A stretch of 23,612 nucleotides of DNA from a virus. Taxonomy: Duplodnaviria > Heunggongvirae > Uroviricota > Caudoviricetes. This document shows positions 1 through 23,612 of this stretch, in pieces. The notes beneath the pieces are model-generated. The model ran no database searches and was not told the DNA's origin. It saw nothing but the letters and a program-made list of their open reading frames with translations. Location of the stretch: the IMG/VR virus record IMGVR_UViG_2648501338_000019; one strand, given 5' to 3'. Positions within the stretch are counted from its first letter, which is position 1. The number at the start of each line of letters is the position of its first letter. Position numbers and translations under genes: made by a program.

Positions 1-351
1 ATGCGAGAGACAGTCGAAATTATGCGTTATCCCGTCACTCTTACACCCGCGCCGGAAGGCGGTTATATGGTTTCTTTTGTGGATATCCCTGAAGCGTTGA
101 CCCAGGGCGAAACTGTCGCTGAAGCGATGGAAGCGGCAAAAGATGCTTTACTGACCGCATTTGATTTTTATTTTGAAGATAACGAGCTTATCCCGTTACC
201 TTCGCCATTAAATAGTCACGATCATTTTATTGAAGTACCTTTGAGCGTCGCCTCTAAGGTATTGCTGTTAAATGCTTTTTTACAGTCAGAAATCACTCAG
301 CAAGAGTTAGCCAGGCGAATTGGCAACCCGAATGTAGTCAACCCCAAATAA
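1..351 (+). CDS. hicB: HicB-family antitoxin, N-terminal (HicA-binding) domain only; C-terminal DNA-binding domain absent. Likely true start is the ATG at 22 (MRYPVTL...)
   Basis: Translation MRYPVTLTPAPEGGYMVSFVDIPEALTQGETVAEAMEAAKDALLTAFDFYFEDNELIPLPSPLNSHDHFIEVPLSVASKVLLLNAFLQSEITQQELARRIG matches my recollection of E. coli HicB nearly residue for residue; it then diverges (NPNVVNPK, stop) at about nt 322-330 where a full HicB would continue into its DNA-binding domain. Confidence 0.7.
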   Translation: MRETVEIMRYPVTLTPAPEGGYMVSFVDIPEALTQGETVAEAMEAAKDALLTAFDFYFEDNELIPLPSPLNSHDHFIEVPLSVASKVLLLNAFLQSEITQQELARRIGNPNVVNPK

Positions 352-574
352 CTAAAAATTTTGCAATAAAAAGCCCCATCACAAGGACAAGGCTTAGAAA
401 TCAACTAATTAACATAGTTTCCAGATCAAAAGGGTTATAATGAAATCCATAAAAGGTGATCTGTTAGCTGGGTGCTGTATATCTAAAATGTTACTTAATT
501 AATATCGTTCTGGTGGTTAGCTTTCATCGCATCCCACCAATCTTTTGTGATCTTCATGTTATTGAATTTCATAA

Positions 575-1342
575 TTATTTGCACCCGTACTGGTCAATGT
601 ATGTTCTTGAATATTTTTTATGTACTTCTAAGCGAATCATATCTTGATTATCACGCCACACATAATATTTTTTGTTATCCACTTGGCCTTCATATTGCAT
701 TGCGCCATTCTGATGCGTCACTGTTTTTGTCTTTGCTTTATGCGCGTCATAATTATCACGATACACAAATTCAATAATTTCCCCGTCTTTTACTTTAAGT
801 TTAAGTTCACCAGAGTTATAACGAGGATAGCCAATGTCTTTAACTGCTTTTGTTTCTACCCCGTCTTGGATTTCCCAGCTATAGTGAACATCGCATTGCA
901 ATGTCATGTCTCCGGTAAATCCTTTTGGTTTATCTTCAACCTTCGGTTCTTCCACCACTTTTTCTTCCTGTTTCGGTTGTTCTTCTTCAACCTTCGCAGA
1001 AGTCTCTGAAACGCTCCCTGACGCGGTTTCTTCTTTAGATAATACATTCATCAAGTTTTGGATTTGAGCGTTGTATACAGCCTCCAGTGGCTGAATCTGC
1101 CCGATATTGATCATTGTGTCACGAACAGTTTTATTCCAGTTACGTTGCTCTTGTTTAAGAGACGGATTAATCTTAACAGCCTTAACATATACTTCATGAA
1201 GTTTAGAATCCAGTGCGGAGATTGACTCATTAGCACAAATAAACTTCTCTGATTTGGTAGTAGCCTTAGTGCAATCAAAGGACGCAGCATCAGCACCGAA
1301 AGCAGTAGCAGAAAGCATGATAGCAGCGATAATGTTTTTCAT
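575..1342 (-). CDS. secreted protein with N-terminal signal peptide and LprI/DUF1311-like domain, E/K/P-rich linker and a C-terminal beta-rich domain
   Basis: ORF of 255 aa; N-terminus MKNIIAAIMLSATAFGADAAS resembles a Sec signal peptide; FDCTKATTKSEKFICANESISALDSKLHEVY...QRNWNKTVRD resembles the DUF1311/LprI fold; SD AAGAGGT upstream of the ATG on the minus strand. Confidence 0.55.
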   Translation of the reverse strand: MKNIIAAIMLSATAFGADAASFDCTKATTKSEKFICANESISALDSKLHEVYVKAVKINPSLKQEQRNWNKTVRDTMINIGQIQPLEAVYNAQIQNLMNVLSKEETASGSVSETSAKVEEEQPKQEEKVVEEPKVEDKPKGFTGDMTLQCDVHYSWEIQDGVETKAVKDIGYPRYNSGELKLKVKDGEIIEFVYRDNYDAHKAKTKTVTHQNGAMQYEGQVDNKKYYVWRDNQDMIRLEVHKKYSRTYIDQYGCK

Positions 1343-2942: not shown

Positions 2943-2967
2943 AGGGACTCTTCGGAGTCCCTTTTTT
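2943..2967 (+). terminator. rho-independent terminator (GGGACTC-TTCG-GAGTCCC + T6); overlaps the stop codon of the convergent minus-strand gene
   Basis: 7-bp perfect stem, UUCG loop, six T residues; sits at the convergence point of plus and minus transcription units. Confidence 0.6.
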
Positions 2968-3208
2968 ATGCAACAATTCGAAGTGTAGGTTTCTTATGTT
3001 GTGTAGGTTTAGTTTCATTTCGCCACTCAGGAAACACCTGATCCATCATAACCGCATTAGTCTCATCAATCAGTTTTAAGGACTTTCTCAACGCCTTATT
3101 ATCAGCTTTAAGAGTTTTAATCTCTGATTCCATCGCTACCATTCTTTCTTTCATTTTGGTAATTTCTAACATCAGATTACCAAGAAATTCTTTGTTTTGA
3201 TTAATCAT
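2966..3208 (-). CDS. hypothetical coiled-coil protein (80 aa)
   Basis: ORF immediately downstream of the 347-aa gene on the minus strand; heptad-like ITKMKERMVAMESEIKTLKADNKALRKSLKL. Confidence 0.5.
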   Translation of the reverse strand: MINQNKEFLGNLMLEITKMKERMVAMESEIKTLKADNKALRKSLKLIDETNAVMMDQVFPEWRNETKPTQHKKPTLRIVA

Positions 3209-3223
3209 AGAATTACCTCTCTA

Positions 3224-4267
3224 TTAAGCTGCGTAGGCGTAGGCGTAGGCGTAGGCGTAGGCGTAGGCGTAGGCGTAGGCGTAGGCGCTGTAGTTGGTGT
3301 CATAGATAGCGTCATGCAGTGCCATCTGTGCTTCGCGGATCTCGTCTTCGTTTACTTCAATCTCTTCTTGTTCTTCTTCGGTATCTTCCCAAGTGGTTTT
3401 GAATTTAGCCATAAAGTTATTGCGCAGGGATTCAAAGTTAGTAACAGGTGCGGATTTTTCTTCAACCGGAACTACTACCGGATCAGCTTCTTTCTGTTCT
3501 TCCTGTCCTACTTTTTCACCGTTACCCCAGCGATAGTTAAGGAGTTCTTCCAGTTCTTCATCAATGGATTTTTCTTCAACTGCTTCAACTTCAACCGCTG
3601 CTACTTCGAAAGTGGTTTCCTGCGCTGCCAGTTCAGCTTTCAGAGATGCGTTTTCAGCTTCCAGTTCAGCAATGCGTGCTTTCAGTGCTTCAACTTCGGA
3701 AGATTCAACCACTGCAACTTCTTCTTTAACTTCTTCAACTACTACCGGAGCAACTTCTTTCTGTGCTTCTTTTTTGCAGAAGAAGGAGGAAGTAACCTGT
3801 AATGCGTGGTTGTAGAAGGAACCGCCTTTAGCGGTGTTAACAGTACCAGAAACATCCTTTACAGTGGATTCAGTAGCAACAGTACGGAAGCGTTTTGCAA
3901 CTTCCTGGGTCTCTACGCCGTATTCGTTACGCTTGCTCTTGTGATGCATTACAGCACGGAAGCCGGAAGCAGTTTTAATAACAGCGAGATAGTAAGTTTC
4001 ATCGGCTTTAACAGCACGAGCGAAGCAATAAACGGATTCACCTTCTACCAGTGTAGGTTTAACGTGACGTTTGTCGAAACGGTTAGTGATCTGCCATTCA
4101 GCACCGTCTTTGATGCCAGCATTCTGACGCATTTCGGTCAGAGTCTTACCGGATACTACTTCAAAGGATTTGTCTTGTTTGCTTGCTTTACCTTCCATAA
4201 CGGTAATGTTCAGTTTGCCGTTGGATTTGATGAATAGGTTGAAGGTGATGCGCTTAGAATTTTTCAT
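3224..4267 (-). CDS. hypothetical protein (347 aa): N-terminal globular domain, acidic linker, leucine-zipper-like coiled coil, acidic region and a C-terminal (Ala-Tyr)9 dipeptide repeat
   Basis: Good SD (AGGAG) 11 nt upstream of the ATG on the minus strand; sensible amino-acid composition, whereas the overlapping plus-strand ORF 3197-3802 is a Phe-rich low-complexity antisense artefact; coiled coil EALKARIAELEAENASLKAELAAQ. Confidence 0.6.
   Translation of the reverse strand: MKNSKRITFNLFIKSNGKLNITVMEGKASKQDKSFEVVSGKTLTEMRQNAGIKDGAEWQITNRFDKRHVKPTLVEGESVYCFARAVKADETYYLAVIKTASGFRAVMHHKSKRNEYGVETQEVAKRFRTVATESTVKDVSGTVNTAKGGSFYNHALQVTSSFFCKKEAQKEVAPVVVEEVKEEVAVVESSEVEALKARIAELEAENASLKAELAAQETTFEVAAVEVEAVEEKSIDEELEELLNYRWGNGEKVGQEEQKEADPVVVPVEEKSAPVTNFESLRNNFMAKFKTTWEDTEEEQEEIEVNEDEIREAQMALHDAIYDTNYSAYAYAYAYAYAYAYAYAYAA
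3231..3284. repeat. perfect hexanucleotide microsatellite (GCGTAG)9, which encodes (Ala-Tyr)9 at the 3' end of the minus-strand gene
   Basis: Nine uninterrupted GCGTAG units read directly from the sequence, followed by a degenerate unit GCGCTG. Confidence 0.95.
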
Positions 4268-4383: not shown

Positions 4384-4563
4384 TTAACAAACTTGAACGT
4401 TAATCTTTACCTGAATTTCGTATTTCTTCATTAGCTTATAGAATCCGCTTCTATCAATCCCTTCCTTCTTAAAGAAGTTTTCCCCGCCTCGCTCAGTGTC
4501 GCTGTAAAACCGTTTAGCAATATCAACAATCATTTCACGAGTAAATTTAACAGGTCTAGCCAT
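4384..4563 (-). CDS. small HTH DNA-binding protein (59 aa from the ATG at 4563; the ORF track extends it to a GTG at 4578)
   Basis: MARPVKFTREMIVDIAKRFYSD...GIDRSGFYKLMKKYEI has a resolvase/transposase-type HTH signature; SD GAGGAA 9 nt upstream of the ATG at 4563. Confidence 0.5.
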   Translation of the reverse strand: MARPVKFTREMIVDIAKRFYSDTERGGENFFKKEGIDRSGFYKLMKKYEIQVKINVQVC

Positions 4564-4964: not shown

Positions 4965-5133
4965 TCAAAATTTTTGTTTGAAAATGGCAAATAATGATTA
5001 TCAACCTTTTAAACCTTATATGGCACGGAGATCTTTTGAAAATTTCTTTTAAATCATGAATTTACATCTATTTTTGGTGGTTTTTTGGTTGAATAATATA
5101 CAAGAATTTTTTGTCAAAATTTTTGATTGAAAA
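4965..5133. repeat. AT-rich region with two copies of the 20-bp direct repeat TCAAAATTTTTG(T/A)TTGAAAA (4965-4984 and 5114-5133) and related A/T tracts
   Basis: Seen directly; lies immediately upstream of the iteron array. Confidence 0.5.
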
Positions 5134-5252
5134 CCTACACTACACACCTACCCTTTAAAGGGATTGGCCTACACTACACTAGCCAGTAAACCTACACTAT
5201 AACACCCTCAAACCTACACTATGAAACCTACACACCTACACTAACCCTACAC
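5134..5252 (+). repeat. iteron-like array: 7 perfect plus 1 variant copy of CCTACAC (4 as the 10-mer AAACCTACAC) in about 120 bp, three of them at 22-bp spacing
   Basis: Copies at 5134, 5169, 5191, 5213, 5227, 5235, 5246, with variant CCTACCC at 5147; counted directly. Confidence 0.8.
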
Positions 5253-5597
5253 TTCAATCACGTAAGTGTATGACCTTGAAAGGTATTATACCCCACAGAC
5301 CATAGAATATAAAATTCGAACTAACGTTCTCCTTTTTGCTCGCTTTCTCTCACTACGTTCAAGAAAGATCTCGCAAAAAGAATACGGCGTAGCCGTGCGC
5401 GTAGCGCCCACCAACACCTTCTAAGACCTGCAAGCAGGATTCGAAAGGGATTGATAGTTCGCTTCGCTCACGTTCACGCCTACGGCGTTCACTCACTTTT
5501 AAAAGGATTTTCTTAGAAAGGGATTTAATACTAGTTACTAACTGATTCTAGTAAACGAACGAAGTGAGTAACAATCAATTTCTAGAAAGGTATTGGT

Positions 5598-8526: not shown

Positions 8527-10431
8527 ATGAAACTGATTTCTAATAAGGCCAAATTAAAAAAGATTCTTAAAAATATCTCTGCGGCAATTCGCCCACCTAA
8601 AACGATGAAACCTAGCGAATGGGTAGAGGCTAATGTAGTTGCAACCGATGGTGTTAAAGCCGGATCTCTAATTAAGTTGCATCCCTTCCAACGTGGAATG
8701 ATGGACGCGATCACCGAAGATAGGCGAAAAATTGTGCTAAAGTGCTCGGCACAGTTGGGTAAAACTCTTGTGCTAAACGGTATTATCTTTCACAGGATCG
8801 CCAGTAACCCTACTAATATCGGTGTTTTGCAAGCGAACGTTCGAGAATTGAACTCATGGATTGCGGGTAAGGTGAAGCCAGTATTAGAGGCAACCCCAGA
8901 ATTAAAGGCGATGATCACCGACAAATCAGATCGCAATGCCGTTAACAACTCATCGATTATTCAGCTTCGTAACGGATCATTCATGTATTTCATGTCGCTG
9001 AACAGTCCATCACACTTGCGCGGTAAGACACTGCCTTTGATTATTCTGGATGAAGTTGATGCGGCTGATGAGTCAGACGAAGGGAACCCGATCCAGCTAG
9101 CGGAACAACGCGCAACCACTTTCGGTGATGATGCAAGGATCGTAATTGCTTCTACTCCAACTTCGCGGGATGGGGCGATAAACCAACAATGGGAACTCTC
9201 GGATAAAAGAAAATACCACGTCGTTTGCCAGCATTGCGGACACAAACACGTAATGGAATGGAGTAGAGTATTCTTTGATTGGCATGTAATCAATGGTAAA
9301 TCACTGCCGAATCCAGACACAGCCGTTTACCGTTGCCCGTCATGTGAAACTGATTGGTCAGAACCAGATCGCCTCCGTGCTGTTGCTCAGGGAGAATGGG
9401 TCGCCACCGAACCAAATGCGGAAGTAATCGGTTTTCATGCTAACCGCCTTATGTCTCCGTTTAGTTCTATCCGTGCGTGTGTGGTGGACTTTGCTGATAG
9501 CTACGCGAATATGTCACTGGCAACGTTCTATAATGTGGTGCTCGGTGAAACCTTCGATGATCTTAACGAAGACCGCACAGCCGACGAACTGGAAACGCTG
9601 AAAACTGACATTAGCTTAGATAATATTCCTGATGATGTTCTGGCTCTGGTAGGTGGAGTTGACCAGCAAAAAGACCGTCTGGAATCTACCTTGCTGGGTA
9701 TCTCTCGTAAGGGGATATGCGTAGTTGATCACCGATCATTCTATGATGTGAACTGCGAACGCCACGAATCGCCAGCATATGACCAGCTTTACAACTTCCT
9801 GAAAGCTAAATTCTATACCCGATCAGGTCAACGAATCCCGATGCTATCTGCTTTCGTGGACTCATCGAACGGACGAGCTACAAACGTGATCTATCGCTTC
9901 TGCACTAGGTGGCAAAACCTATGCGCCATTAAAGGGGCAAGCAATGTTGATGCTCCAATCCTTCCGGTCAAGGACACAAGAACGGGTGGTTTTACTCTTA
10001 AAATTCTGGGCGTAAACAACCTTAAGACGATGATCCGTGAAATGATTAACCGGAACTTGAGAGACAGCGATCCTCATACGGTCTTCCAGATTGGTGACGT
10101 TCCTGATGACTACTGCGAACAATTGTTATCTGAACAGTTGAAACGGCAGGGTAATACCACACGTTGGGTAAAAGTTGGTCAGCAACGAAACGAGGCTCTC
10201 GACTGCCTGGCTTATTCCTATGCTGCTTCTCGCCATGTACTCAATAAAATGTCATGGGAAAAACTCGAAGCCATCAAAGATAGTTTGAACCGCGAACCAG
10301 AAGAACCCGTAGAAGCTCCTAAATCGCAATCTGACGAGCAAATCGAAGAAAATAAGCCAATCACACGACCACAACGTAAAAACATCGCCAGACGCCCAAA
10401 TAGAGGCCGTAGCTGGGTAACATCGTTCTAA
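8527..10431 (+). CDS. terminase large subunit, lambda GpA family
   Basis: 634 aa; Walker A-like KCSAQLGKT, Walker B-like LIILDEVD, and overall length and layout like lambda gpA (N-terminal ATPase, C-terminal nuclease); strong SD. Confidence 0.9.
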   Translation: MKLISNKAKLKKILKNISAAIRPPKTMKPSEWVEANVVATDGVKAGSLIKLHPFQRGMMDAITEDRRKIVLKCSAQLGKTLVLNGIIFHRIASNPTNIGVLQANVRELNSWIAGKVKPVLEATPELKAMITDKSDRNAVNNSSIIQLRNGSFMYFMSLNSPSHLRGKTLPLIILDEVDAADESDEGNPIQLAEQRATTFGDDARIVIASTPTSRDGAINQQWELSDKRKYHVVCQHCGHKHVMEWSRVFFDWHVINGKSLPNPDTAVYRCPSCETDWSEPDRLRAVAQGEWVATEPNAEVIGFHANRLMSPFSSIRACVVDFADSYANMSLATFYNVVLGETFDDLNEDRTADELETLKTDISLDNIPDDVLALVGGVDQQKDRLESTLLGISRKGICVVDHRSFYDVNCERHESPAYDQLYNFLKAKFYTRSGQRIPMLSAFVDSSNGRATNVIYRFCTRWQNLCAIKGASNVDAPILPVKDTRTGGFTLKILGVNNLKTMIREMINRNLRDSDPHTVFQIGDVPDDYCEQLLSEQLKRQGNTTRWVKVGQQRNEALDCLAYSYAASRHVLNKMSWEKLEAIKDSLNREPEEPVEAPKSQSDEQIEENKPITRPQRKNIARRPNRGRSWVTSF

Positions 10432-11008: not shown

Positions 11009-12520
11009 ATGTTTAATCTTTTTCGACGCAAAAAGGCGGTAGAAACTCCAGTTAAAACTAATCACCGCCAGCAACAACAAAAAATCTTTATCGACAAACA
11101 AGTAGAAAAATTCCAGAAATCTCTGGCTACTCGAAGTTTAGGTCTGGTTGGTGATCGCATTGATGGATCGCTTCAACAAGATACTATCACAGGAACCTTC
11201 AATAAGGCTCTCAAATCGAATGGTAAGCGCCTTTATGATCAGGGTCGTACTCTGGCCTTAAACACCTCCGTAGGCAGTCGCTACACGCAATACATCACCG
11301 ATATGGTGGTAGGTACTGGCCTAGATCCGAAGCCGTCAGTTGTTAAATCAAATGGAAAACTTGATAGCGCACTGAATAAGCAGATCGAGAATGCTTTCTG
11401 GAAGTGGGCGCAGAATGCTAAACGCTTCTCTCGTAACGGTCGCTTTAACTTCCGTGAATTGCTGGTAATGGCTGAACGTGAGCGCGTTATGGGTGGTGAG
11501 TGCTTCATAGTTTTAACCAAAGAAAACAATGAGTTAAATGTTTCTATCCTGTCTGCTGATAAGTGCGACTGGACGCTCAACCGTGAAGTAAGCAAAGAAC
11601 GCGCTATCTATCAGGGGATCGAGTATGACGTAGAAACAATGCGCCCTGTTGCATTTTGGTTTCGTAAAATCAACCTACTGACTCAGACTTACACAGGTGA
11701 TAACTATCGCGTAGATGCTTCGCAAGTATGTCATTATTATCAACCACTTGCGGCTGAATCTCTGCGTGGTGTGACTGACTTCCTGCCAGTGATTAAGGAT
11801 ATCGCACATCAAGACGCATTCCGCGAAGCTGTACTGGTACATAAACGAATTTCAAGTTGTAGCATGGCGTTCATCGAGCGTCCGAAAGATTCTGGTGACG
11901 ATTTTGATACTGGTGAAGATGATGAACAATATCAAGCGCCGGAAGTTATTCACGATTTCGCGCCAGGTACTATTCAGGAATTACCGGAAGGGGCAACGAT
12001 CAAGAGTATTCAATCCACGCAAAGCGGCGATGACTTTAACAGCTTCAATGATGGAATGTTCACGAGTATAGCGATGGGTCTTGGCGTGTTCAATCAGGGC
12101 TTAACTGGCGATACTAGCCAAATAAATTACAGCGCCGCACGCTACGGCGAATTACTTCAAAGAACGCGCGTTAAAGCACTGCAAAACAAATTGATTGAAA
12201 CAGTGGTATTGCCAATTTTTGAAGCATATCTACGCCATTATTCTGCGCGTGGTATTGTTCCGATTCGTATTACTGCAATTCCGCATATTATCGAGAACAC
12301 TACTATTATTCGTCCTCGTTTTGAATCCGTCGATCCATTTAAAGACGTAAGCGCCGAGATTGCTTTAATTGATAACGGACTTAAATCACGTACTGCCGTT
12401 ATATTAGAACGTGGTGATGATCCTGAAAAAGTATTCTCAGAGATTCAAGCCGAAAAGAGCGCACTAAATATTATCGTTGATGGTGAGAGCAAGGATAACC
12501 CTTCTCAAACCGATCCCTAA
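11009..12520 (+). CDS. portal protein, lambda gpB-like
   Basis: 503 aa directly after the terminase; segments such as FNSFNDGMFTSIAMGLGVFNQGL resemble the lambda gpB core; acidic C-terminal tail. Confidence 0.85.
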   Translation: MFNLFRRKKAVETPVKTNHRQQQQKIFIDKQVEKFQKSLATRSLGLVGDRIDGSLQQDTITGTFNKALKSNGKRLYDQGRTLALNTSVGSRYTQYITDMVVGTGLDPKPSVVKSNGKLDSALNKQIENAFWKWAQNAKRFSRNGRFNFRELLVMAERERVMGGECFIVLTKENNELNVSILSADKCDWTLNREVSKERAIYQGIEYDVETMRPVAFWFRKINLLTQTYTGDNYRVDASQVCHYYQPLAAESLRGVTDFLPVIKDIAHQDAFREAVLVHKRISSCSMAFIERPKDSGDDFDTGEDDEQYQAPEVIHDFAPGTIQELPEGATIKSIQSTQSGDDFNSFNDGMFTSIAMGLGVFNQGLTGDTSQINYSAARYGELLQRTRVKALQNKLIETVVLPIFEAYLRHYSARGIVPIRITAIPHIIENTTIIRPRFESVDPFKDVSAEIALIDNGLKSRTAVILERGDDPEKVFSEIQAEKSALNIIVDGESKDNPSQTDP

Positions 12521-12565: not shown

Positions 12566-14572
12566 ATGCTTAAATTTCGCCGCGATCTTAACGGTTACGG
12601 TGGAGTTATTAACGAAGGGCAGAATGATCAATACGAATTTGAAATTGCTTTCTCCAGTGAACAGCCTTATCAGCGCCAATTCTGGGATGAGCAAAATCAA
12701 GAAATGGTGGTATTAGATGAAATTCTGGTACATACACCGGAAGCGGTTGATCTGTCTCGTCTGAATAATAACGCTCCGTTGCTGTTCAATCATAATTTCG
12801 ATAATCATATTGGTGTCGTTTGTAACGCTCGAATCGATGCGGATAACGTAGGTCGTGCTCTGGTTAAATTCTCTAAGCATGGCACTTTGGCTAATGATAT
12901 TCGTAATAAAGTCATTGAAGGTACGATGGAAAAAATTTCTGTCGGTTATGACATTAAAGAATATCACATCGACTACACCAAAGGACAATTGATTGTTACT
13001 AAATGGATTCCTCACGAGGTTTCATGGGTGTCTGTTCCCGCAGACGACACCGTGGGTCTGAATCGCTCTCTAAATACTATCACAGTTAATTTGGAGGCTA
13101 AACGCGATATGACTAAAGAACAAATCGAAGAAATCAAAGAAGAACAAGAACCCGCTCAGGTTGAAGAAACTCCGGTAGAAGAAAATAAAGAACCGGAAGT
13201 AGAAGAAACTCAAGAGCGCCAAGTTGAAGAGAATAAAGAAGATGAAAATCTCGAAGACGGAAAAGACGCTAAACATCCTGAAAGTGTTGATGATGATAGT
13301 TCAACTGTTCGGGAAACAGAAGAAGTAAAAGAAGAACGTGAAGCCGCTCCGGTTGAAGAAGAAAAAATCGAAGAAGTGGCTGAACGTTCCGAAGAAGACG
13401 AAGAAGAAATCCGAGCAATCGCTCGTGAGTTAAATATTAACGACGAAGAATTAGAACGCGCATTGGCAGTTAAAGATATGACGCCGGAAGCATTCCGCAC
13501 TAAGGCACTAAATAACATTACCAATGCTCAACGTAATAACGAACAAATTAATAAGGAACAAATCATGGAAAAAACTTTCGATCTTAATAACGTAATCCGC
13601 TCCCTGGTAGATGGCGACGTGCTCGGCGCTAACGAAGCTGAATATTCCGCTATGGCTGCTGGTGCTGCAATGCAGCGTGGTCGTGCTGCTCGCGGTGGCT
13701 CTGTATTCGTTCCGGCTGCTGCTCTGCGTGCTGCTTCCGAAGGTAACACCAAAGCTACTCTGACCGCTGTAACCGACGAAAAACTGCTGACCGAATCCTA
13801 TGTAGAAATGCTGCTTCCACAGTCTGTTCTGGGTCGTCTGGGTGTGACTGTTCTGTCTGGTCTGAATAGCCCGATTGCAGTACCAAAAATGACTGCTTCC
13901 AGCGTCGAAGCCTTTGGTTTTGTTGATGAAAATGGAAGTGCCCCCGAATCGAAGGCTAGCTTTGAAAACGTGAAAATGGCTCCGAAAACTTTTGCTGGTG
14001 GCAACCCGATCAGCCGTCAGTCTCTGAAAACTGTTCCGAATATTGCTACCCTGATCACTGATCACATTAACAAATCTGTTCGGATCAAACTGGAACAACT
14101 GATTCTGTCTGACAAAGACAACGAGCGCGGTCCGAAAGGTCTGGTTAAGCAACTGGTAGACGGTGGTCGCGTTACTAAGAAAGCCGCTTTTAGCTACAAA
14201 GACTTCCTGAAAGAAATTGCAGCACTGACCGACGCTGGCGTTCCGGCACAGTCCATCAAGTTTGCAATGAGCGGTGCAACTGCTGCTGAACTGGAATCTA
14301 CCCTGAAAGATAACGGCGTTTCCGGTTATATCATCGAAAACGGCAAACTGGCTGGTTACGATGTAGTTACTTCTGGCGTTATTCCGGCAGACCACATCGT
14401 TCTGGGTGACTTCTCCGGTATCATGATCGGTGAATGGGGTGGTCTGGAACTGGATATGGACGACACCACTTACCGCGCACAGTCTGCTATCGTTCCGCGT
14501 ATCTGGGTAGACCTGGACTTCACCGTAGTTCAGCCGGAAGCTCTGAAAGTTCTTCACATCTCCGCTGAATGA
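12566..14572 (+). CDS. prohead protease - acidic scaffold-like linker - HK97-fold major capsid protein fusion (668 aa); TGA stop
   Basis: N-terminal region resembles HK97-family prohead protease, the middle about 130 aa is E/K-rich (scaffold/delta-like), the C-terminal about 330 aa resembles HK97-type major capsid proteins; lies between portal and neck genes. Confidence 0.8.
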   Translation: MLKFRRDLNGYGGVINEGQNDQYEFEIAFSSEQPYQRQFWDEQNQEMVVLDEILVHTPEAVDLSRLNNNAPLLFNHNFDNHIGVVCNARIDADNVGRALVKFSKHGTLANDIRNKVIEGTMEKISVGYDIKEYHIDYTKGQLIVTKWIPHEVSWVSVPADDTVGLNRSLNTITVNLEAKRDMTKEQIEEIKEEQEPAQVEETPVEENKEPEVEETQERQVEENKEDENLEDGKDAKHPESVDDDSSTVRETEEVKEEREAAPVEEEKIEEVAERSEEDEEEIRAIARELNINDEELERALAVKDMTPEAFRTKALNNITNAQRNNEQINKEQIMEKTFDLNNVIRSLVDGDVLGANEAEYSAMAAGAAMQRGRAARGGSVFVPAAALRAASEGNTKATLTAVTDEKLLTESYVEMLLPQSVLGRLGVTVLSGLNSPIAVPKMTASSVEAFGFVDENGSAPESKASFENVKMAPKTFAGGNPISRQSLKTVPNIATLITDHINKSVRIKLEQLILSDKDNERGPKGLVKQLVDGGRVTKKAAFSYKDFLKEIAALTDAGVPAQSIKFAMSGATAAELESTLKDNGVSGYIIENGKLAGYDVVTSGVIPADHIVLGDFSGIMIGEWGGLELDMDDTTYRAQSAIVPRIWVDLDFTVVQPEALKVLHISAE

Positions 14573-21830: not shown

Positions 21831-23612
21831 ATGACAAGACATATAGTAACAATAGAAGGAGATAATGACGGTCTAAGGAGAAGTACCAATCAGGCGATAG
21901 AGATGCTTGATAACCTTTCAGAAAGGGCAATGAATCTTGATTTGTCTGGTGGTTTATCTAGTTTAAGTGGAACCCTTCGCGGAACTGGTGGATCGCTTGC
22001 TTTGGCTGCTGGTGGTTTTGTTGGTTTGGCTGCTGGCGCTATTTCTGCTGCAAATGCCATCGGTGATTATGTAAAGGAATACAGCGAAGTTTCAAAAGCA
22101 ACTGGTTTAACCGTCGAAACACTCCAGAAATTAGAGAAGCAATTCTCCGGTACTGGCTTAACCGTTGAGAAATTTGGTGATATTAACAAAGACACCTTAG
22201 ATAAGCTGGCTGATGCATGGCGTAACGGTGGCGGTATTGAAGACGACCTAGAAAGTGTAGGTTTGAAGATTAAAGATTATGCCGAGTTTATGAACGATCC
22301 ACAAGGCGGGATGAAAGCGGCGATCAAGGTCTTCTATGATATGCGCAAGGCTGGTGCGTCTATCGCTGATGTTAAGTTTATGATGGAATCGTTAGCCAGT
22401 GATTCAAGTCATATGGCTGATGAATTGCAGAAATACGGATCTTATCAGGAAGCTGTAAACGCCATTAATCAGCAAACTGTTAAAATCACCAATGACACAG
22501 CCGAAGAATATAATAAATTCTCTAAAAATATGGATACCCTTACCGATAACTTAAAGGGTATGGCTGCAAATGCACTAAATCCAGTTGTTGAAGGGATGAA
22601 TAATCTTTACAACTGGTTTGATAAAGATTGGGAAAAGACCGCTTTATTCAACGCATTAAAGACTTTTAATGAAAGGTTTGAAAAAGCTCGCCAGAATATG
22701 GCTATGGCTAACGGTGGTTTTATTAACAAGCATGGTTATAGTTCTACTGGTCTAGCGGGTGGACAAGCCAGCTTCAACAATAAACCAAATTATCCTGATC
22801 GTTGGGTGGATAGTGAAGGCGTTACCCGTGATAAAAACGGTGATCCGGTAATTACTATCACTGGAAATAAATCGGATACCGGATTTACCCCAACGGGTCA
22901 AGGTGGAGGCGTCACCGGACCATCGAAAAAAGAACAAGAAGAAGCCAAGAAGAAAGCGGAAGAGGCAGCTAAAAAGGCTAAGGAAGCCGCAGAAAAAGCA
23001 CAGAAAGCACGCGAGGATGCAATCAAGCGACTGAATGCTCTTGATGTTAAATTGCAAGGACAGACAGCCGCGTCTATTGCTTCTCAAAACAAGCAGTTAG
23101 AAGCCAGCTTGAAAGATTTAGACACTGCTTTAGATATGGGCTTAATCTCTCAGCAAGACGCAGCCGCTAAACGTCAGCAACTGTTAGATCAGAACGCAGA
23201 AAACATCTATAAAATGATGTTGGGTGCTGATCCGATTGATGCTCTGAATGCCTTAACAGTTTTGCAACAAATCAGGGACAACGAGCTAGAAAGCCATAAA
23301 CGGTTACTTGATGGTAAAGCTATCTCCTACGAAGAATATATGCGTCGTGTGAATGATACCGAGCAAAACTATTCTCAGATTGATAGTCAGTTACAGGGAA
23401 TGGATGGTTTTAAAACCAATCAATTGACTAATAGCTTAGACTATCAGGATTCAAATAACCCGTTTGCTAAATTTAATGCAATCGATCAAGAGAAATCGGA
23501 AGCTGAACAAGATTATGTGAACCGCCCCGGGTTTCCTGGAGAGTGTTTTATCTGTGAACTCAGGCTGCCAGATCATCGTTTCCGATGGAAGCATAATAAG
23601 CTTTTTCTGCTT
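21831..23612 (+). CDS. tail tape measure protein, 5' portion (open to the end of the window)
   Basis: Open frame of 594 codons with no stop; N-terminal glycine/alanine-rich hydrophobic segment (GGSLALAAGGFVGLAAGAISAANAIG) and a lysine/glutamate-rich coiled coil (KKEQEEAKKKAEEAAKKAKEAAEKAQKARE); canonical position after G/GT. Confidence 0.75.
   Translation, partial: MTRHIVTIEGDNDGLRRSTNQAIEMLDNLSERAMNLDLSGGLSSLSGTLRGTGGSLALAAGGFVGLAAGAISAANAIGDYVKEYSEVSKATGLTVETLQKLEKQFSGTGLTVEKFGDINKDTLDKLADAWRNGGGIEDDLESVGLKIKDYAEFMNDPQGGMKAAIKVFYDMRKAGASIADVKFMMESLASDSSHMADELQKYGSYQEAVNAINQQTVKITNDTAEEYNKFSKNMDTLTDNLKGMAANALNPVVEGMNNLYNWFDKDWEKTALFNALKTFNERFEKARQNMAMANGGFINKHGYSSTGLAGGQASFNNKPNYPDRWVDSEGVTRDKNGDPVITITGNKSDTGFTPTGQGGGVTGPSKKEQEEAKKKAEEAAKKAKEAAEKAQKAREDAIKRLNALDVKLQGQTAASIASQNKQLEASLKDLDTALDMGLISQQDAAAKRQQLLDQNAENIYKMMLGADPIDALNALTVLQQIRDNELESHKRLLDGKAISYEEYMRRVNDTEQNYSQIDSQLQGMDGFKTNQLTNSLDYQDSNNPFAKFNAIDQEKSEAEQDYVNRPGFPGECFICELRLPDHRFRWKHNKLFLL

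Follow-up and report, generated by a model that had tools for sequence, protein, structure and literature searches.

A hexanucleotide repeat in a prophage gene

The 23,612-nucleotide (nt) stretch analyzed here (IMG/VR record IMGVR_UViG_2648501338_000019; hereafter, the window) is the left half of a siphovirus-like prophage of ~41 kb inserted in the antitoxin gene hicB of the Escherichia coli chromosome. The preliminary description had taken the element for a phage and needs correction on this point, as it is an integrated E. coli prophage and not a free phage. We focus on an orphan open reading frame (ORF) of 347 amino acids (aa) on the minus strand (3224-4267), which encodes an N-terminal alpha/beta domain, an acidic coiled-coil middle, a conserved C-terminal motif, and a tail of Ala-Tyr (AY) pairs. 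The ORF belongs to a three-gene minus-strand operon. The first gene, upstream, is a 59-aa ORF (4384-4563, minus strand; from the RefSeq annotation of identical genes). Downstream is an 80-aa coiled-coil ORF (2966-3208, minus strand), whose GAGG ribosome-binding site (RBS) and ATG fall in the 15 nt that follow the 347-aa ORF and its stop codon, and a GC-rich hairpin terminator (2943-2962) closes the operon. A convergent terminator is located on the plus strand (2843-2858).

The 3' end of the 347-aa ORF carries a perfect hexanucleotide tract at 3231-3287 (period of 6, 9.5 copies, 100% matches, and a score of 114 in Tandem Repeats Finder). Read directly, the plus strand at 3231-3284 consists of nine GCGTAG units, as first described for this ORF, and the 6-base periodicity persists through 3287. 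Coding is on the minus strand, where the register is AGC (GCC TAC)x9 GCA GCT TAA and the codons at 3233-3286 encode (Ala-Tyr)9. The nine Ala-Tyr pairs of the preliminary description are therefore present, but they are not the very end of the protein: two further Ala codons, GCA GCT (3227-3232, minus strand), are outside the expanding unit and precede the stop codon (3224-3226, minus strand). The protein thus ends ...LHDAIYDTNYS-(AY)9-AA-stop, with the motif LHDAIYDTNYS (3287-3319, minus strand) directly before the repeat-encoded tail. Sequences flanking the tract are GACACCAACTACAGC and GCAGCTTAATAGAG. A regular-expression census of the 23.6-kb window found no other perfect repeat with a unit of at least 4 bases and at least three copies, and the status of the tract as the sole such repeat rules out chance as its explanation.

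Folding of the mRNA around the tract yielded no structure (z = +0.78), and Rfam and tRNA scans of the window returned no matches. A plus-strand ORF that overlaps the tract (3197-3802; GVGVGV...) was considered and rejected as a shadow frame, as every homolog and every RefSeq annotation lies on the minus strand. That frame is also disfavored by a GCC/GCA difference between alleles, which is synonymous on the minus strand and exchanges Gly and Cys on the plus strand.

Copy-number variation and origin of the tract

Tail length varies across homologs. Of 202 homologous protein clusters, the best 120 (94-100% identical) divide as follows: 91 have a tail of two AY units, five have three, five have four, and nine have five; in four others the first AY unit is altered by a point substitution and in the remaining six the tail is truncated or otherwise altered. 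The nine units of the window exceed every tail in this set, and every complete tail in it finishes in AA-stop. At the level of DNA, alleles with two (L002), three (L011 and L012), four (L009 and L010), nine (the window), and 11 (L001, strain C325) GCCTAC units were recovered. Outside of the tract, no substitution separates genes with two, three, four, and 11 units from the window gene, and the allele with five units (L008) has eight. The comparison to the prophage of strain C325 is the most direct. Across 14,136 bp of aligned sequence, there is one mismatch and one 12-nt gap that corresponds to exactly two repeat units. With a single mismatch in 14,136 bp set against nine versus 11 units, the tract is by far the most mutable site in the prophage. 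Proteins with three and four units are each encoded on dozens of contigs, indicating that the alleles are heritable.

These comparisons bear on what the preliminary description had anticipated. It proposed that slippage would change tail length without breaking the frame, and whole-unit, in-frame alleles of 2-11 units in near-identical genes agree with this; likewise, the comparison of related isolates that it called for revealed that copy number varies, from 2 to 11 units. It had also named an invariant repeat number and absence from homologs as grounds against its proposal. The number is not invariant. Absence from homologs is found in part, as most homologs carry only a 2-unit proto-repeat and a divergent branch of the family is without such a tail.

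No allele disturbs the reading frame, the terminal AA, the stop codon, or the 15-nt spacer within which the RBS of the following gene is contained, and the tract thus varies the length of the protein and does not act as an on/off phase switch. Location of a hypermutable tract 15 nt ahead of the following gene could suggest a phase-variable contingency locus, in which changes in copy number toggle the 347-aa gene or the downstream 80-aa gene. But the unit is six bases long, frame, AA, and stop are the same in all 26 tails read at the DNA level and in every complete tail of the 120 proteins, and copy number leaves the downstream RBS and ATG equally far from the stop codon. We consider such a switch to have practically no probability.

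The state of the repeat in complete genomes points to how it arose. In 15 of 18 complete-genome loci with a full-length match, the tail is encoded by GCC TAC GCA TAC, which specifies two Ala-Tyr units but is imperfect as a DNA repeat. One locus has GCC TAC GCC TAC, one has GCC TAC GCA TAC GCA TAC, and one has the 11 GCCTAC units, so that the 2-unit state accounts for 16 of the 18 loci. A synonymous A-to-C difference distinguishes the window lineage from the common form and renders both units identical, and only in this perfect-pair lineage are high copy numbers reached. Separately, the GCATAC unit was expanded to two or three copies in L004, L014, and L013, the genes of which differ from that of the window by 25-34 substitutions. 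The independent expansion of GCATAC indicates that the slippage process is general as to sequence.

We suggest that the tract is probably a hypermutable, in-frame hexanucleotide variable number tandem repeat (VNTR) that was born at the 3' end of a prophage gene when a proto-repeat of two units expanded by replication slippage. The features expected of a VNTR are found: perfect copies arranged head-to-tail, whole-unit polymorphism in near-identical sequences, and recurrent independent changes (homoplasy). The ancestral state is also the commonest one, GCC TAC GCA TAC GCA GCT TAA, encoding AYAYAA. The synonymous A-to-C difference makes the pair of units perfect in the window lineage, and from this perfect pair the array has grown to three, four, five, nine, and 11 units with little or no other change. 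Slipped-strand mispairing during replication is the likely means by which the array changes, with mutability predicted to grow with copy number and repeat purity. The proposed path, from proto-repeat to purification to slippage with a length-dependent rate, is the one followed by microsatellites in general, in which the rate of slippage grows with length once a proto-repeat has been purified.

At the level of the product, the alleles differ only in how many extra Ala-Tyr pairs separate LHDAIYDTNYS from the C-terminal AA. The extra length would be tolerated and close to neutral, with no programmed switch. The longest allele, with 11 units, is in a prophage remnant truncated by IS3, a finding that fits tolerance of the tail rather than a need for it. 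A near-identical copy of the prophage with two units is riddled with insertion sequence (IS) elements. On the best reading of these sequences, extra Ala-Tyr pairs are tolerated and nearly neutral.

Several considerations weigh against this reading. All of the evidence for variation in copy number comes from comparisons between isolates. The perfect-repeat lineage shows only expansions above the 2-unit state, and the absence of contractions could reflect bias or selection. The basal AYAYAA tail may not be functionless, and its lengthening may be non-neutral. In L029, a homolog that is 61% identical, AYAYAA is encoded by other codons (GCT TAC GCT TAC GCT GCT, where E. coli uses GCC/GCA), and conservation across different codons suggests that the short tail probably matters at the level of protein. 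The role that we propose below for the 347-aa protein draws on three specificity types and comes with no recognizable DNA-binding fold. Lastly, contigs of three independent draft assemblies (L031, L032, and L033) end exactly at the first bases of the tract. Some tracts may be too long or heterogeneous for short-read assembly and long alleles may be under-sampled.

These breaks at the tract indicate that assemblers struggle there, and exact matches to the 347-aa protein and to the 351-aa protein are absent from a collection of 15 billion proteins. Both could be taken to mean that the 9-unit tract was introduced erroneously in assembly or polishing. Against an artefact, the series of two, three, four, five, nine, and 11 units is graded and was recovered from independent assemblies that include finished chromosomes, alleles differ by whole units and keep frame, and a tract of 57 bp is shorter than a typical read. 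An erroneous tract is thus highly improbable. In a fourth contig (L034, 1370-1424), unrelated sequence, possibly the end of a mobile element, replaces the last codons after ...GAC ACC.

Iterons, the 347-aa protein, and its tail

An array of iterons is located on the plus strand at 5131-5255. It has seven exact CCTACAC cores within AAACCTACACTA units that are partly spaced at 22 bp. The core is strongly enriched, with 11 exact copies in the window versus 1.34 expected. Two copies on the minus strand (2983-3007, at 2983 and 3001; GTGTAGG on the plus strand) are in the 3' end of the 80-aa ORF, one is inside the 347-aa ORF (4051-4057, minus strand), and a further core is at 22255-22261. A block with 23% GC (5060-5139) adjoins the array upstream and could be an unwinding element or a promoter region; a regulatory operator array with an abutting AT-rich block would look the same. 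Near the iterons, a 65%-GC island (5380-5419) holds two GCGTAG hexamers (acGGCGTAGCCGTGCGCGTAGCGCC).

In relatives of the prophage, synteny is conserved. TerL is followed by a gene of ~200 aa, Rha, genes of ~58 aa and ~150 aa, and a non-coding gap of 1.2-1.3 kb, after which come a gene of ~60 aa, the gene for the 347-aa protein, and then a small coiled-coil gene. The 80-aa coiled-coil ORF is present in L029 and absent from type-B prophages, which are defined by their N-terminal domain. Arrays of iterons are present in the relatives as well (L028, 5131-5323; L029, 5001-5435; L007, 3368-3565), and iteron sequence and the N-terminal domain of the 347-aa protein vary in concert, with three specificity types. 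Iteron CCTACACTA occurs with the window-type domain in the window and in L029 (77% identical in this domain), CCCTGCACTA with a domain that is 45% identical (P0123, in L028), and TTGCCCCTGAA with the unrelated type-B domain in three E. coli genomes, in one of which the prophage is inserted in hicB like that of the window. Neighboring genes do not follow this pattern. The 59-aa protein is 100% identical in GN4741 despite different iterons and is thus not the specificity determinant, and identity of the 155-aa protein is 38% in L029, which shares the iterons of the window, and 66% in GN4741, which does not. Because iteron type tracks the type of N-terminal domain and not neighboring genes, the 347-aa protein is probably iteron-binding, and most likely fills this role for the prophage family as a replication initiator or regulator.

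The two halves of the protein appear to differ in role. The N-terminal domain (about aa 1-170; 3758-4267, minus strand) is the candidate iteron-specificity domain and would provide specificity, whereas the C-terminal half shared between types, including the tail, would be the effector part. The C-terminal motif is common to types (HDAIYDTNYS versus HDEMYGTNFS), being kept as IHDEMYGTNFS in the type-B homolog with its unrelated N-terminal domain and as LHDAMFDTNYG in P0121. The co-variation suggests a previously unrecognized family of iteron-binding initiator or regulator proteins with swappable N-terminal domains.

Searches with the protein yielded few relatives. Pfam, PHROGs, NCBIfam, and PADLOC applied to the 347-aa protein and its neighbors returned coiled-coil noise only and no family, a profile search of PDB likewise returned coiled-coil noise only, and tblastn of the protein against phages returned no match. 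An exhaustive HMMER search identified true relatives of the N-terminal domain in only three to four clusters among 1.84 billion representatives, and a large protein search with the C-terminal 100 aa, aimed at alleles with long tails, returned fragments only. The AlphaFold2 (AF2) model is poor overall (pLDDT, the per-residue confidence score, of 53), with values of 70-84 for the N-terminal domain, a long helix at residues 190-247, and values below 50 for the tail. No fold match to the model was found, and family and fold searches found no sequence or fold homology to a known initiator family. The term coiled-coil protein in the preliminary description is reasonable given the helix predicted at residues 190-247 and weak bZIP-like matches. 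Judged by its homologs, the protein is generally length-plastic and the AY tract is the extreme case within it. Its middle (3330-3770 of the window; aa ~170-310) is rich in indels and built of imperfect short repeats. Among homologs that are 94-99% identical, indels in this region include a 7-residue insertion (EMTAVKT) and gaps of 2-5 residues.

The preliminary description noted that the repeat unit contains the CCTAC core of the iterons. This is literally true but is better viewed as a coincidence of codon choice. Were the likeness functional, (GCCTAC)n would serve at the level of DNA as an iteron-like decoy or binding array for an iteron-binding protein. The junction between units, CCTACGC, matches the core CCTACAC at six of seven positions, the core itself is genuine, as its enrichment attests, the tract is oriented like the three minus-strand cores at 2983, 3001, and 4051, and the array member at 5168 reads GCCTACAC. 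Yet L029 has the same iterons and encodes its tail with GCT TAC GCT TAC, in which CCTAC does not occur, and other lineages expanded GCATAC. Units in the tract are spaced at 6 bp compared to 22 bp for iterons, and the flanks of the iterons (AAA before the core and CTA after) are unmatched. Moreover, with both strands counted, ~2-3 matches of 6/7 to a 7-mer are expected per kb, and the match in the ancestral sequence needs no explanation. A binding array is therefore very improbable. An iteron-related origin of the repeat was likewise rejected in view of the codons in L029. Nor does the repeat belong among the iterons, as the consensus AAACCTACACTA is unmatched, and spacing and conservation in L029, which shares the iterons, fail as well.

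The tail could instead act through the protein. If the AY array were a variable spacer that tunes a C-terminal signal, such as an ssrA-like degron or a partner-binding tail, slippage could adjust how much iteron-binding protein is present or how active it is, heritably and reversibly, and with it prophage replication or induction. Retention of AYAYAA despite different codon usage implies a function for the tail. All complete tails share the terminal AA, as does P0123 (RRAA), which is 45% identical, and the array directly follows a motif that is conserved even in homologs with a different N-terminal domain. The C-terminus ...AIYDTNYS(AY)nAA is also loosely like the E. coli ssrA tag AANDENYALAA (PMC9382460). 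The likeness, however, extends to four of seven positions of the SspB-binding part, with YAA in place of LAA, and confidence of the AF2 model for the tail is below 50. Distant homologs have other ends (P0123, RRAA; type-B protein, SYCQ; P0127, FHL), showing that the tail is not universal and that a C-terminal AA is not family-wide. The 2-unit state is dominant, both among complete-genome loci (16 of 18) and cluster representatives (91 of 120), and long alleles are located in prophages that are riddled with IS elements or truncated. By analogy to known tags, an adaptive spacer of this kind is conceivable but unlikely.

More specifically, the AY array could be a slippage-driven length dial on a C-terminal signal of an iteron-binding family of prophage proteins, which we regard as a long shot. 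If true, spacing between HDxxYDTNYS and AA would set the stability of the protein or its binding to partners, as in an adaptor-dependent ssrA-like degron, and copy number would set the level of prophage replication or induction, with the consequence that lineages of lysogens could evolve prophage activity quickly and reversibly. Should tail length affect stability or activity, the tract would be a rare example of a graded, non-frameshifting repeat dial on a phage regulator.

The prophage and comparison with known systems

The window encodes, in addition to the operon, a TerS-like gene (1701-2255; PHROG 57, E = 6e-11), TerL (8527-10431), a portal (11009-12520), a protease-capsid fusion (12566-14572), and tail and tail-fiber genes. 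The 6 kb that separate the TerS-like gene from TerL contain two small membrane-protein ORFs, the three-gene operon on the minus strand, the iteron gap, and a Rha/Ant-like gene. No recognizable replication genes or CI-type repressor were found in the window. A gene of the LprI family (lysozyme-inhibitor-like; 575-1342, minus strand) separates the hicB junction from the first phage gene. It resembles a moron, and its length varies by strain (768 nt versus 795 nt).

A near-identical copy of the prophage has a large serine recombinase at its far end and split halves of hicB on both sides. The split of hicB into 5' and 3' pseudogene halves was observed from window 1-411 and L015 (NZ_CM149869.1, 2454000-2500000). 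Sister prophages of the same family are inserted in ycdX (GN4741, FXCREC043, and L029). The locus is matched in 63 of 5426 complete E. coli genomes (~1%), in 18 of these at full length, and all matches are chromosomal. There is no close isolated phage, the best TerL match being 43.7% identical, and searches of the locus for near and distant DNA matches against 50,697 phage records returned no match except for one of 69 bp in a Proteus phage.

The last 95 bases of the window (23518-23612) match, in inverted orientation, the end of an IS3-family element in L001 (31300-32555), and this element truncates the prophage of strain C325 exactly where its similarity to the window ends (window 14136). 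From these matches, IS3 seems to also interrupt the tail module in the strain of the window, and an IS-mediated rearrangement seems to separate that strain from C325.

Lambdoid O-type initiators have a type-specific N-terminal half that co-varies with iterons and a C-terminal half that is shared between types. The 347-aa protein is alike in this respect, as its N-terminal domain tracks the iterons and its C-terminal part is common to types. Unlike lambda O, it has no similarity in sequence or fold to a known initiator, its iterons are in a 1.3-kb non-coding gap upstream of the operon rather than inside of the gene, and a helicase-loader partner is not recognizable in the prophage. Based on sequence, we suggest that this orphan is the origin- or operator-binding protein of an uncharacterized family of E. 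coli prophages that is without recognizable replication genes.

In the ssrA tag, AANDENYALAA, the final LAA is critical, and a 4-residue spacer, as in the DAS+4 tag, changes SspB-dependent delivery (PMC9382460). The 347-aa protein similarly ends in ...NY...AA, with a nonpolar end and a variable spacer between a motif and the terminal residues (PMC9382460). It differs in having YAA for LAA, only partial upstream identity, and a tail that is encoded in the genome rather than added by transfer-messenger RNA (tmRNA).

Contingency loci of Neisseria, Haemophilus, and Campylobacter change by slipped-strand mispairing at mutation rates that are far above the genomic background, and the alleles of the prophage tract suggest the same for it. 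Contingency loci switch genes by shifts in frame or by promoter spacing, whereas the 6-base unit in the prophage alters protein length only.

The closest parallels are loci used in multilocus VNTR analysis (MLVA) of E. coli O157:H7. In seven of nine standard loci the unit is 6 bp long, and allele sizes range from about 2 to 13 (PMC3768571); K-12 has only three short hexanucleotide repeats (PMC7015867, citing Gur-Arie 2000). Like the MLVA loci (TR/Vhec/O157-n), the tract has perfect 6-bp units, ~2 to >10 copies, and whole-unit differences between close isolates, and is in the accessory genome (PMC3768571). We found no description of the prophage locus or its repeat in the literature searched. 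The phenomenon of a six-base VNTR is known in E. coli and this locus seems to be undescribed. For fine-scale typing of lineages with the prophage, the tract could be used as a marker. Unlike the MLVA loci, the locus is present in only ~1% of complete E. coli genomes, and the steps by which its repeat was born, from an imperfect 2-unit proto-repeat by way of a synonymous change, can be followed. With an increase from two to 11 units in a surrounding 14 kb that is almost unchanged, the tract provides a clean natural example of the birth of a coding microsatellite.

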